Made by a program: the position numbers and the translations under genes. A stretch of DNA of 31,160 bases from Pseudomonadota bacterium (GTDB lineage: Bacteria; Pseudomonadota; Alphaproteobacteria; Rhizobiales; Rhizobiaceae): positions 1-31,160 of the forward strand of contig JBCDIB010000001.1 of assembly GCA_038749385.1 (NCBI GenBank). The letters are read 5' to 3'. How positions within the stretch are numbered: the first letter of the stretch is position 1; every line of letters starts with the position of its first letter. A model generated the notes under the pieces. That model searched no databases and was not told where the DNA came from. It saw only the letters and a program-made list of their open reading frames with translations. This document shows positions 25,908 through 31,160 of this stretch, piece after piece.

Positions 25908-26711
25908 GTGAAAGTTTCTCGTCTTATCCCAGTTGCAGTTGCTGTGGTGGCCGCAGGCGGCGCTGGGCTCGTCGCGATGAATTTGGTCAACCAGCCTCAG
26001 GTGGTGGTGGACCAGGGGGCCGTTGCTGTTCAACCCGAGCGGCCAACGGTTGGCATTTTGGTTGCAAGCGATGATTTCGACATGGGCAACCGCGTCAACG
26101 ACACCAATGTGCGCTGGGAAGAGTGGCCAGAGGAAACGGTCAACGCCAATCCTGATTTCGTCCGAATTGATGAGAATCCCGGCGCGTTGGAAACCTATAT
26201 CGACTACATCGCGCTCTCAAACGTTATTTCCGGTGAGCCGGTCACTTCCAAGAAATTCGCCTCCGCTGAAAATGGCTTCATGTCCGCGCTTCTGCCTCCC
26301 GGCAAGCGCGCCATGGCAACCGAAATTTCGCTGACAACCGGGGCCGGCGGTTTCATTCTGCCCAACGACCATGTCGATGTGCTGATGACGCGGAACCTCG
26401 AAAGCACCGGCGGTGCCAATGAAGCCAGCGCGACGGAAGTGCTGTTTGAAAATGTCCGTGTGTTGGCCATCGGCCAGACTATCCGTGAAGAAGACGGCTC
26501 TCCGGTTGTGGAGGGAAGCACTGCAACCCTCGAACTGACCCCGCGCCAAACTCAGCTTCTCACAGCAGCCCGGGCGTATGAGGGCACATTGACCCTCGCC
26601 CTGCGCTCGCTGAGCGACAAACAGGGCGATTCCACCACCTTGGAACGTGAATTGGCCGGCTCCGTAAACATGATCCTCGGGGGCGTCAAAGGCGTCGCCG
26701 TCACCGAATGA
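25908..26711 (+). CDS. cpaB: Flp pilus assembly protein CpaB/RcpC
   Basis: N-terminal TM anchor, SAF-like region (VRWEEWP, GEPV...K), LPPGKRAMA, GAGGFILPND.VDV, ENVRVLAI and ATLELTP.Q. Confidence 0.95.
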   Translation: MKVSRLIPVAVAVVAAGGAGLVAMNLVNQPQVVVDQGAVAVQPERPTVGILVASDDFDMGNRVNDTNVRWEEWPEETVNANPDFVRIDENPGALETYIDYIALSNVISGEPVTSKKFASAENGFMSALLPPGKRAMATEISLTTGAGGFILPNDHVDVLMTRNLESTGGANEASATEVLFENVRVLAIGQTIREEDGSPVVEGSTATLELTPRQTQLLTAARAYEGTLTLALRSLSDKQGDSTTLERELAGSVNMILGGVKGVAVTE

Positions 26712-26719
26712 GGAACACG

Positions 26720-28294
26720 ATGATGAAACGCGCCCTCTTCACGGCGGCAATGGCCGTCGGATTGACAGCCTTCGCCCCGGTCTTCGACGCATCCAAGCCC
26801 GCACATCTTGGGTCTGGGCTAATGTCGTCCGCCGCCCATGCGGAAAGCCTCATTCGTCTGCGCGACGATGGTGGTGCCAGCCTTCAGAACATCAATTTGG
26901 GCCTGAACAAATCCCTCGTGATTGATCTGCCCCGCGACGCGCACGACTTGCTCGTCGCCAGCCCCAAGGTCGCTGATGCTGTGATCCGTACAAAGCGGCG
27001 CATCTATGTGTTTGGCAAAAGCGTCGGTGAGACGAATATCTTTGCCTTTGACAAAGCGGGCGCCCCCATTCTCTCGCTCAATCTCAATATTGAGCGCGAT
27101 ATTGCGGGCATTAAAGAACAGCTCGCCCGCTTCATCCCAGGCTCAAAAATCAACGTGGAGCTGATCAGCGATAACGTCATTCTCACCGGTCAGGTCCAAA
27201 CCCCGCAGGACGCAGAACGTGCGGTCGCGCTTGCCCAGGCCTTCATCAAGGGCGGCGAGGCGACCACCGGTGCTTTCACGCAGACGGCGACGTCGAGTGG
27301 TAACACCGGCGCTGGTGGATTTGCGGGATCTTCCGTGGCCATTGCGCAACCCGAAGCACGGCGCGAATCGCAAATTATCAACCTCCTGAAAATCGCTGCA
27401 GAGGATCAGGTGACGTTGAAAGTCACCATCGCTGAAGTTCAGCGCTCAGTGATGAAGCAGATGGGTTTTTCGGGTCAGTTCAGTGCCGGAAACGGGGGTA
27501 TGGCCTTCCGGGTCGGCAAGGGGTTCTCCTCGGGCCTTGGCAATCAGCAGGGCACAGGCTCGATTTCGGCCGGAGGCAGCATTGGCGACTTCGGATTTGA
27601 CGCCAACCTACACGCCTTCGAGCGGGCAGGTGTGGCCAGAACGCTGGCCGAGCCCACTCTCACAGCGATTTCCGGCAAAGCCGCTTCATTCAAGGTTGGT
27701 GGCAGCTACTTTGTCGGCGGCGGCCGTGAGCGGGCGATTGAAGAATTCAACGGCGTTGACCGCGAGGTCTTCACCGACACGTTCACCGAAAAAGAATATG
27801 GTATCGGCCTCAACTTTACGCCTGTCGTCTTGGCCCCGGGCCGCATTTCAATCGAGATGAGCACTGAAGTTTCCGAGCCCGACATTCAGGGCGCAGCCAA
27901 TGATGGTGTTGGCGGTATTTTCGCCGGTATGCGCAAGCGCGAGGCCAGCACCACTGTTGAACTACCCTCCGGTGGATCCCTGATGGTCGCTGGTCTGGTG
28001 CAGGATTCGGTGCGCCAGTCGATCACGAAAATCCCCGGTCTGGGCAATCTGCCGATCCTTGGCACACTGTTCCGAAGCCGCGATTTTCAGCGCGACGAGA
28101 CCGAGCTGGTCATCATCGTAACGCCTTATCTGGTCCGGCCCGTCGCCAATCACAAGCTTCAGCGCCCGGACAACAATTTCCAGGCGACGTCAGACATCAA
28201 CGCCAATCTTCTTGGCCGCATCACCAAGGTCTACGGGCGTCAAACGCCCGCAGGCAGCCGCTACAATGGCAAGATCGGTTTCATCATCCAATAG
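26720..28294 (+). CDS. cpaC: Tad secretin CpaC/RcpA
   Basis: LGLNKS.VIDLP.DA.D.LVA.P.VADA, QVTLKVTIAEV, LAEPTLTAISG, F.PVVL.PGRIS, KIPGLG.LPILG.LFRS.DFQ..ETELVIIVTPY. Start 26720 (RBS) or 26708. Confidence 0.96.
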   Translation: MMKRALFTAAMAVGLTAFAPVFDASKPAHLGSGLMSSAAHAESLIRLRDDGGASLQNINLGLNKSLVIDLPRDAHDLLVASPKVADAVIRTKRRIYVFGKSVGETNIFAFDKAGAPILSLNLNIERDIAGIKEQLARFIPGSKINVELISDNVILTGQVQTPQDAERAVALAQAFIKGGEATTGAFTQTATSSGNTGAGGFAGSSVAIAQPEARRESQIINLLKIAAEDQVTLKVTIAEVQRSVMKQMGFSGQFSAGNGGMAFRVGKGFSSGLGNQQGTGSISAGGSIGDFGFDANLHAFERAGVARTLAEPTLTAISGKAASFKVGGSYFVGGGRERAIEEFNGVDREVFTDTFTEKEYGIGLNFTPVVLAPGRISIEMSTEVSEPDIQGAANDGVGGIFAGMRKREASTTVELPSGGSLMVAGLVQDSVRQSITKIPGLGNLPILGTLFRSRDFQRDETELVIIVTPYLVRPVANHKLQRPDNNFQATSDINANLLGRITKVYGRQTPAGSRYNGKIGFIIQ

Positions 28295-28364: not shown

Positions 28365-29003
28365 ATGGCATCGACAAAGAAAATTCTGGCGATTGGTTTC
28401 GTGGGTCTGGCGTTGGCTGCCTGTGGACGGACAACCGATCCAAATACCGTATCCACGGTCAGCACCGATTACCGCAAGACTCACCCCATTTTGGTGGGAG
28501 AGAGCGAGCGCAAGCTGCACCTGATGGTTGGCAGTGATGATTCAAGCCTCGCTTTTCCCGACCAGCGAAGGGTAGAGGCGTTTGCGGAAGGGTTCTTGTC
28601 ATCTGGCGCCCACGTGTTGACCGTCCACAAACCCCATGGTGCCCACAATCAACATGGCGTTGAACGCGTTTTGCCCGATGTTCTGCGCCAGCTGCGCAAG
28701 TCAGGTGTTCGCGGTCATCATGTAAAGGTGCAAAGCTACAGCTTGCGCAGTGCCCAGGAGGCAGGTGCAGTGCACCTGAGTTACCGCACACTGACAGCCT
28801 CGGTGCACGAATGTGGCACTTGGGAAGAAGACATCACCGACACGTTTGAAAATCGCAACTACCAGAATTTCGGTTGCGCCAGCCAGGCCAACTTTGCGGC
28901 GCAATTGGCTGATCCCAAGGATCTGGTCACACCGCGGGCACCAAGTCCCGTCGATGCAGAACAGCGCGCAAACGTGTTGGAAGCCTATAAGGAAGTCGAC
29001 TGA
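28365..29003 (+). CDS. cpaD: Pilus biogenesis lipoprotein CpaD
   Basis: Lipobox LALAAC, DYR..HPI and C-terminal C..W.ED....F.N..Y.NFGCA.Q.N.AA...DP.DLV.PR. Confidence 0.93.
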   Translation: MASTKKILAIGFVGLALAACGRTTDPNTVSTVSTDYRKTHPILVGESERKLHLMVGSDDSSLAFPDQRRVEAFAEGFLSSGAHVLTVHKPHGAHNQHGVERVLPDVLRQLRKSGVRGHHVKVQSYSLRSAQEAGAVHLSYRTLTASVHECGTWEEDITDTFENRNYQNFGCASQANFAAQLADPKDLVTPRAPSPVDAEQRANVLEAYKEVD

Positions 29004-30556
29004 TGAGTGAGAACCTTTTCAAGGATAAGGCAGCAACACCCTCAAAGGTCGCAGATGCATTCTTTGCGGATGATGCTGGCGAGTTCGCCGCCGACGCAAA
29101 AGTGGACGCGCAGGCAATGGCACCAGCGATGGCGCCTGATCTACCCTCGCAGCCAGAGTTTGCAGCGGAGACGATGTCCGATGCGATGCCTGAAGCAATG
29201 CCTCACGCTGCGCCCCCTCCCGTTGAGCCGATGGTGCTGGAACAGCCCGAACCCACAGCGATGCGCGTGGCCGCCCGTCAGGTCGAAGCCAATGACGAAC
29301 AGTTTCTGTCGGCTATGGAAACTGTGCGGCCCATCCCGCGCATCTCACTTCAGGCTTTTTGTGCCACCGAGCGTTTTGCGTCCGTGCTTGAGCAGGGTGC
29401 CAATGACCGCCGCATGAGCAAGGCCCATGTGAAAGTGCATATGGGCTCCATTCCCGCCGCAACCCAATTCTACAGCCAAGCTCCAACGCCAAACCTGCTG
29501 GTGCTGGAATCCAAGGAGGCGCCCGAGATCATCATCGCGCAGCTCGACGAATTGTCGACCCATTGCGACCCCGGCACCAAAGTTGTGGTCGTTGGCCACA
29601 CAAATGACGTGACGCTGTACCGTGAACTCATTCAGCGTGGTGTGTCGGAATATATGGTTGCACCGGTGGAATTGCCGGCCATGCTGCACGAGATTTCGAC
29701 GCTCTTTGTCGATCCCGAGGCCGAGCCTCTGGGTAAATTTGTAGCCTTTGTGGGTGCCAAGGGCGGCGTCGGGTCGTCCACCATCGCGCACAATTGCGCC
29801 TGGCACATGTCCAATCAGAACGAGTCTGATGTTGTGCTGGCCGACCTCGATATCGCATTCGGAACGGCCAACATTGATTTCGATCAGGAGCCTGCCCAGA
29901 CGATTGCCGATGTGATCTTTTCCCCCGAGCGGCTGGATGAAACCTATTTGGATCGCATCCTTGCAAAGTGCTCTGAGCATTTAAGTTTGCTTGCGGCCCC
30001 GGCTACGCTGGACCGGACCTGCGATTTTGAAGAGCTGACCTTCGACGCATTGTTCGATTTGCTGCAAGCCGGCGTGCCCAATGTGGTGCTGGACTTGCCA
30101 AACACATGGACCAGCTGGAGCCAACATGTGCTGACCCGGGCGGACCACGTGGTGATCACCGCGACCCCGGATCTTGCCGGGCTGCGCAACACCAAGCTGT
30201 TGATGGACAAGCTTGCTCAGCTTCGCCCCAATGACGACAAACCGCATCTGGTGCTGAACCAGGTGGGTGTTCCCAAGCGCCCGGAAATCTCGGTTGCTGA
30301 CTTCTGCGCCCCGTTGGGAATTGAAGCCGCATCGGTTCTACCGTTTGCTCCGGAACTGTTCGGGACCGCTGCCAACAATGGCCAGATGATCGGTGAGTTT
30401 GAGCCAAAACACGACGCCGTTCAGGTGCTCGACGCCCTGGCCGCCACCGTCACCGGACGAAAGCAGCTTGTGGTTTCCAAGCCCCGTGGGGGGCTGGGTC
30501 CAATTCTGTCCAAACTTGGTTTGGGTGGAAAAGGCTCCGCCACCGCAAAGGCTTAG
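29003..30556 (+). CDS. cpaE: CpaE/TadZ (atypical receiver + MinD/ParA-like domain) with a long N-terminal extension
   Basis: PRISLQAF, RRMSKAHV, TPNL.VLE, G..NDV.LYREL..RGVSEY, deviant Walker A GAKGGVGSST.AHN and DLD..FGTA..DF. Confidence 0.94.
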   Translation: MSENLFKDKAATPSKVADAFFADDAGEFAADAKVDAQAMAPAMAPDLPSQPEFAAETMSDAMPEAMPHAAPPPVEPMVLEQPEPTAMRVAARQVEANDEQFLSAMETVRPIPRISLQAFCATERFASVLEQGANDRRMSKAHVKVHMGSIPAATQFYSQAPTPNLLVLESKEAPEIIIAQLDELSTHCDPGTKVVVVGHTNDVTLYRELIQRGVSEYMVAPVELPAMLHEISTLFVDPEAEPLGKFVAFVGAKGGVGSSTIAHNCAWHMSNQNESDVVLADLDIAFGTANIDFDQEPAQTIADVIFSPERLDETYLDRILAKCSEHLSLLAAPATLDRTCDFEELTFDALFDLLQAGVPNVVLDLPNTWTSWSQHVLTRADHVVITATPDLAGLRNTKLLMDKLAQLRPNDDKPHLVLNQVGVPKRPEISVADFCAPLGIEAASVLPFAPELFGTAANNGQMIGEFEPKHDAVQVLDALAATVTGRKQLVVSKPRGGLGPILSKLGLGGKGSATAKA

Positions 30557-30586: not shown

Positions 30587-31051
30587 ATGTTTGGAAAACG
30601 TGGCGATGGAAAATCACCTGGCCCTTCGACAGGTTCGGGTGGTCTGGGCGCAGGCGGCGGGGTGGCAACAGCTGCACCGCCAAAAACCGCAGCTCCAGGC
30701 CCGGCCCCAACGCCTTCACCATCACCCGCGCCTGCTGCGGGTCAAGTGGCTGCGCCAAAAATGCAGCCAAGCATTGCGGACGCGGCTCCAGTGCCCACCC
30801 CGGCTCCCGCGCCCGCCGCGCGGTCAACGTCGGGCAATAACCGCAATCAGGATTATTACGCCACCAAGGCCAGCATTTTTGCGGCTCTGATCGACACCAT
30901 TGATCTGGGTCAGCTGGCACAGCTGGACAATGAAGCGGCCCGCGAAGAAATCCGCGATATCGTTTCTGACATCATCGCGATCAAGAACCTCGTCATGTCC
31001 ATCGCCGAGCAGGAGGCTCTGCTTGAGGACATTTGCAATGACGTGCTTGGC
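30587..31051 (+). CDS. cpaF: N-terminal 155 codons of the Tad ATPase CpaF/TadA, interrupted at about 31051
   Basis: AAGGA RBS and ATG 30587. MFGKRG start, Pro/Ala linker, then DYYATKASIFAALIDTIDLGQLAQLD.EAAREEIRDIV.DII.IKN.VMSI.EQE.LLEDICNDVLG, all CpaF-typical. The expected continuation (YGPLEPLL...) is absent. The frame stays open to the window end, so it is missing from the ORF track. Confidence 0.9.
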
Positions 31052-31160
31052 ATCAAACCACAAATAGCTCGACGGATTTTCCAGGAGCATGCGGCGGCCG
31101 ATATGGTCCTGGAGCTTTTTGATGTGGTCGCTCACCCGCGCCACCGTGGCCTCGGTGTAC
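31052..31160 (-). CDS. Internal fragment of a DUF692/UPF0276 (MNIO, multinuclear non-heme iron oxidative enzyme)-like gene; 5' part outside the window, 3' part missing
   Basis: The minus strand from 31159 reads YTEATVARVSDHIKKLQDHIGRRMLLENPSSYLWFD, matching the DUF692 pattern PYT.E....V..HI...Q..LGR..LLENPS.YL.F. After this the frame runs into the antisense of cpaF. Confidence 0.75.

Follow-up and report, generated by a model that had tools for sequence, protein, structure and literature searches.

The window analysed here is the whole of contig C1, 31,160 nucleotides long, of the assembly G000, which comprises 303 contigs and 2.28 Mb and is 75.2% complete and 1.4% contaminated. The assembly is evidently a metagenome-assembled genome (MAG) of a marine alphaproteobacterium, since the public runs that match it carry marine and groundwater metagenome labels. 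On its plus strand the contig carries the first genes of a tad/cpa pilus operon, whereas its last 109 bases encode, on the minus strand, a piece of a DUF692/MNIO gene; the two meet at 31051/31052, inside cpaF.

The tad/cpa operon and the partial cpaF gene

The native operon is read from the plus strand and starts with cpaB (25908..26711; RcpC/CpaB, Pfam PF16976, E 2.8e-29), followed by the secretin gene cpaC (26708..28294), whose product shows the Pfam domains Secretin, T2SS-T3SS_pil_N and BON and which is collinear with its counterpart in G002, a genome of the same genus. The next genes are cpaD (28365..29003; PF09476, E 1.8e-53), for which an identical protein is encoded on the Logan contig L025 (SRR22824304), and cpaE (29003..30556), which encodes a ParA/MinD-like ATPase (Pfam AAA_31 and ParA) with a best tblastx segment 85% identical to G002; an exact look-up of the CpaE protein returned no record.

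The last gene is cpaF, of which the plus strand (30587..31051) holds the N-terminal 155 codons only, with DICNDVLG as the last residues, as identified from the CpaF proteins of the genus; the open reading frame itself runs from 30587 to 31159, encodes 191 residues and is open at its 3' end. Residues 1–155 share 86% and 78% amino acid identity with the CpaF N-terminus of the congeners G002 and G001, respectively. Both congeners have YGPLEPLL directly after DICNDVLG; the protein of G002 is intact, with 510 residues. Contig C1 is collinear with G002 from approx. 26.9 kb to exactly 31051; past the equivalent point, G002 continues with the remainder of cpaF and then with ORFs of 341 and 329 residues that occupy the places of tadB and tadC. 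After 31051 the window matches the cpaF of its genus at 31 of 109 nucleotides, which is the random level. The first-pass annotation had described the plus strand as following the CpaF consensus as far as DICNDVLG (31051), with no YGPLEPLL after it; this description is borne out by the congeners and by a collection of 5.8 billion proteins, in which, of the 120 best-matching partial CpaF relatives, 113 show the continuation G[YLF]GPLEPLL. A search for natural CpaF proteins that continue like the window (IKPQ/ARRIFQ) had also been proposed; once run, it found this continuation in none of the same 120 proteins.

CpaF/TadA is the motor ATPase of the Tad/Flp (Cpa) pilus. The window resembles this system in its gene order, cpaB-C-D-E followed by the CpaF N-terminal region, and differs from it in holding the first 155 codons only; the T2SSE ATPase domain (PF00437), with its Walker A and B motifs, is absent from the 191-residue ORF and from all of G000. 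The product is CpaF-like despite the missing domain, on account of its N-terminal region and the operon context. A Pfam search of all contigs of this 75% complete assembly also gave no T2SSF (PF00482; tadB/C) and no rpoB (PF00562), and for this reason the missing 3' part of cpaF is best explained by incompleteness. At such a level of completeness absences weigh little, core genes being missing too. The cpaF gene is truncated by the end of the contig, and breakage in the cell is not what the data show.

The 3' continuation of cpaF in the population of the window was recovered from no collection searched. Among partial CpaF proteins the best match to the window is 67% identical and none comes from the same population, and a 24-mer taken just left of the joint gave zero exact matches among JGI metagenome contigs. 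From the congeners we infer that cpaF is intact in this population. The region after DICNDVLG is no hot spot for contig breaks among the 120 partial CpaF proteins, of which 5 end at 12 residues or less from the motif in a distribution that is fairly flat. Three partial proteins (P0029, P0079 and P0109) have non-consensus ends soon after DICNDVLGYG (..GYGSA, ..GYGPP and ..GYGPLSSGP), which may be similar contig-end artefacts elsewhere. The N-terminus of CpaF includes a long Pro/Ala/Gly-rich stretch of low complexity (30620–30830), the length and sequence of which vary between congeners.

The joint at 31051/31052

The position of the joint (31051..31052, 1 nt of overlap) was defined by a three-way DNA comparison of C1, the cpaF genes of G002 and G001, and the DUF692 gene of the locus L023, which is described below. 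The GGC codon of Gly155 ends at 31051; the C at this position is compatible with either parent, and both have an imperfect GTGCT immediately to its left. Each of the two breakpoints falls inside a coding sequence. The break that had been placed at 31051 is indeed the exact point at which C1 diverges from G002 and from the contigs that bear the tail, and the suggested comparison with the nearest genome for microhomology yielded this one shared nucleotide, too little for a k-mer path. The distance from the joint to the end of the contig, 109 bases, is shorter than a typical short read.

No mobile-element features or repeats were found at the joint, and no recombinase gene was noted nearby among the part of the window ORFs that was scanned. 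The earlier observation that terminal inverted repeats are lacking holds, as the best flanking pair is 12 nt long at 92% identity, with its arms 402 nt apart, and none is meaningful. The reciprocal junction for which a search had been proposed, with the 3' part of cpaF joined to the 3' half of DUF692, is absent from the 75% complete G000, where PF00437 has no match and the sole other PF05114 gene is intact.

The DUF692/MNIO fragment

The foreign fragment (31052..31160, minus strand) is a stretch of 36 codons from the interior of a DUF692/MNIO (bufferin maturase-like) gene of Roseobacter type, as assigned from PF05114 and from the match to L023. The minus strand from 31159 to 31043 matches PF05114 (MbnB_TglH_ChrH, formerly DUF692) over approx. 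positions 108–146 of the 263 of the profile (E 5e-7; 29.6 bits versus a cut-off of 25), as a fragment and not a gene, and the peptide fits the conserved ..LLENPSSYL.. core of the family. The proposal that the minus strand from 31052 encodes a DUF692-like peptide is therefore substantiated by a match above the cut-off. It had been stated in addition that both genes keep their 5' parts; this is correct for cpaF, with its 155 N-terminal codons; the DUF692 gene is represented only by an internal piece of 36 codons, which gives no view of its 5' part.

Genes of the DUF692/MNIO family are part of bufferin-type RiPP operons (PMC11626156, PMC12452194), which combine a DUF2282 precursor, an MNIO protein and a DUF2063 partner. 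The tail is like these systems in its PF05114 core, and the near-identical gene of L023 adjoins a DUF2063 gene; the difference is that the tail has 36 codons only, which come from another organism.

One other DUF692 gene is present in G000, on contig C270 (locus L003); this full-length gene shares only 50% identity with the tail peptide. It extends from 654 to 1565 of that contig (PF05114, E 5e-104), preceded by an ORF of 97 residues that resembles a DUF2282 precursor (331–624; PF10048, E 8.5e-21) and followed by a DUF2063 partner (1525–2331; PF09836). The three genes constitute a complete, intact bufferin-type operon that is native to the organism of the window. The contig also includes an extra ORF of 167 residues with no Pfam match.

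When a second copy of the tail was looked for in G000, only chance-sized matches of 13–21 nt were obtained. One of them, 21 nt long and exact, pairs positions 31137–31157 of the tail with 8119–8139 of contig C39, in a response-regulator gene; both stretches encode TEATVAR. As a source of the joint this match was judged coincidental and irrelevant, chance being a probable explanation. A length of 21 nt is a common smallest k-mer in assemblers, and the match could be a spurious graph link. A 30-mer of the tail had zero exact matches among JGI metagenome contigs.

The organism from which the tail derives

The closest match to the tail, L023, was found by scanning one genome per species with a degenerate DNA pattern. 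It lies on a MAG contig labelled 'Pseudomonadota bacterium', with a coverage of 174.6 in the contig name, and carries an intact DUF692 gene of 298 residues followed by DUF2063. The tail is identical to it at 103 of 109 nucleotides (94.5%) and at 35 of 36 amino acids. Among DUF692 proteins none was found with full identity to the tail peptide; the best representatives agree at 33 of 36 residues, so L023 stays the closest. The named relatives of the L023 protein all belong to the Roseobacter group (Shimia, Roseovarius, Ruegeria, Octadecabacter, Sulfitobacter and others), and its close relatives carry the NCBI name 'MNIO family bufferin maturase'.

The lineage of G031, the genome that contains L023, was compared with that of the window through RpoB, with G002 as the same-genus proxy, as the rpoB gene of the window's genome is not assembled. 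RpoB of G031 is 84–87% identical to that of a Thalassobacter (Paracoccaceae) MAG and 66–75% identical to that of the genus of the window; given that G002 and the Thalassobacter MAG share 72%, G031 is no closer to the genus of the window than this MAG is. The cpaF N-terminus of the window has no match in G031. The single DUF692 gene that is present in each of G001 and G002 is 50% identical to the tail. Judged from the match to L023, the RpoB comparison, the Roseobacter-group relatives and the 50% identity with the organism's own DUF692, the tail is DNA of a different lineage and not of the window organism. The two sides of the joint thus come from different organisms, the left one being collinear with G002 and the right one near-identical to L023.

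The operon and the tail in community contigs

For the marine runs of one study the search covered Logan contigs, in which rare variants are lost; another 48 contig pieces and 45 loose ends exist beyond those listed here. In run X1, which may not be the source sample of the MAG, a contig of 2824 nt at a depth of 10.4 runs from the end of cpaC through cpaD and cpaE into the start of cpaF, and ends at 30922. It differs from the window at two positions, 30790 and 30838, both in the low-complexity stretch of CpaF. The exact look-up of CpaD gave only L025, a Logan contig of 2824 nt that bears the same genes and also stops at 30922, and that is probably the same contig.

It is other contigs that bear the tail, and among those listed for X1, X2 and X4 they have depths of 16–203: in X2 a contig of 722 nt with depth 203, in X4 one of 326 nt with depth 154, and in X1 several short contigs with depths of 16–68, one of which matches 58 nt of the window without a difference. 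The depth of the tail haplotype is thus 1.5 to 20 times that of the organism of the window. Several of these contigs leave C1 exactly at 31051 and enter ..WFDESTMAETEFL (minus strand), the normal continuation of DUF692, and in the X4 contig the 30 bases shown to the left of 31051 are identical to L023; others pass 31159 rightwards into the normal ..DLLPLPY. Within the tail, variant positions in the Logan contigs are 31082, 31091, 31114 and 31117. The comparison with the Logan contigs reported no joint, and none of those listed bridges 31051, although Logan drops rare variants, so that absence is not proven, and no run is listed for the joint with the two 31-mers sampled from a 60-mer centred on it. 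The community therefore presents the parents unjoined and at contrasting depths, the DUF692 parent in community contigs and the continuation of cpaF in congeners only.

A probable chimeric contig end

In view of these results, the end of C1 is very probably an assembly chimera between two genomes, and not an inversion, a phase switch or a hairpin from multiple-displacement amplification (MDA). A marine alphaproteobacterium of low abundance (depth approx. 10 in the best run found) would have an ordinary cpaB-C-D-E-F operon, and its assembly would end inside cpaF. At this dead end the assembler would have continued across a join to the DUF692/MNIO gene that belongs to a much more abundant Roseobacter-type co-resident, and the extension would have stopped after 109 bases, probably at the first branch of the strain-variable graph of that organism. 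We infer a technical origin for the join, in a chimeric read or library molecule as opposed to a graph error; if this is right, the join must be present in one or more chimeric reads or library molecules, because the overlap is too short for a k-mer path, and one or a few such molecules are its most likely source. The 3' part of cpaF, together with tadB and tadC, would belong to the approx. 25% of the genome that is absent from the bin. Under this explanation 31051 would not be the site of any biological event, be it an inversion, the disabling of the motor or a phase switch.

In a test with a mock community, the chimeras in de Bruijn metagenome assemblies were located at the ends of contigs (PMC8172020). 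The end of C1 resembles the chimeric contig ends of short-read de Bruijn assemblies and MAGs in several ways: unrelated genomes are joined with hardly any shared sequence, the joint lies within about one read length of the end with a shift in depth across it, and both parental forms are present, unjoined, in the community. It differs from the mock chimeras of that study in that these involved very similar genomes with long identical stretches, whereas the parents of C1 share 1 nt only. The first-pass annotation had considered that the sequence alone could not decide between an inversion and an artefact; of these two branches, the artefact, in its misassembly form, is supported by the foreign tail, the depth contrast and the lack of a bridging contig among those listed, and the inversion is disfavoured.

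Alternative explanations

Another possibility is a real and very recent acquisition, in which Roseobacter DNA with DUF692 entered cpaF by illegitimate recombination at a microhomology of 1 nt and knocked out the Tad motor. The junction does exist in a deposited contig, and the natural continuation of cpaF in this population was found nowhere. Moreover, the shortness of the tail is by itself not decisive, since an assembler would likewise soon stop if a real junction led the contig into DNA that an abundant multi-strain population has in common with it, and the contigs that bear the tail are short and fragmented. Against this, the tail haplotype occurs at a depth well above that of the window organism and several of its carriers continue as an intact DUF692; neither a bridging contig nor a run with the junction words is listed; the joint lacks mobile-element features or repeats and has both breakpoints within coding sequences; the operon of the congeners is intact; and a chimeric read would place the joint just there, less than one read length from the end of the contig. 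Taken together, these observations make an acquisition improbable, though likelier than the other two alternatives below. It is very unlikely, more specifically, that a rare strain has very recently integrated the DNA of the dominant Roseobacter with which it co-occurs into its cpaF, essentially without homology, and destroyed its Tad motor.

A real inversion within the genome that recombined cpaF with a second DUF692 paralogue, or an invertible switch for phase variation, would account for the convergent orientation of the two truncated genes, which is the geometry of one end of an inversion. The foreign origin of the tail largely refutes this reading: the tail is 94.5% identical in nucleotides to a Roseobacter-type gene of another lineage, while the genus has one DUF692 only, 50% identical to it. 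Furthermore, G000 contains neither the reciprocal junction nor a second DUF692 fragment nor the 3' part of cpaF, the flanking inverted repeats amount to the 12-nt pair mentioned above, and no recombinase gene was noted nearby among the ORFs scanned. The claim of a real inversion that disables the Tad motor and splits the operon is not sustained by the foreign tail, the intact DUF692 gene of C270 and the missing reciprocal junction, and for the same reasons the inversion geometry is incidental; we regard an inversion or a switch as exceedingly unlikely.

An inverted chimera from single-cell MDA deserves hardly any credence: head-to-head inverted joins are a known product of MDA, but the classical inverted chimeras join nearby segments of one template molecule, whereas here the halves belong to organisms of different lineages, the matching public runs are labelled as marine and groundwater metagenomes, and the depths have the profile of a mixed community. 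The intramolecular MDA product that had been suggested does not fit two halves that belong to separate genomes in a bulk metagenome.

Implications

The last 109 bases of C1 (31052–31160) are to be trimmed, and cpaF is to be annotated as a partial gene that runs off the contig and not as a disrupted one. The end of C1 gives no grounds to propose the loss of the Tad pilus, phase variation or a RiPP locus beyond the edge of the contig. Should an acquisition nevertheless prove true, it would be a transfer between lineages caught in the act. The case serves mainly to flag data quality, and it also illustrates how, in a MAG, the breakpoint of a rearrangement can be mimicked by a foreign tip that is shorter than a read.
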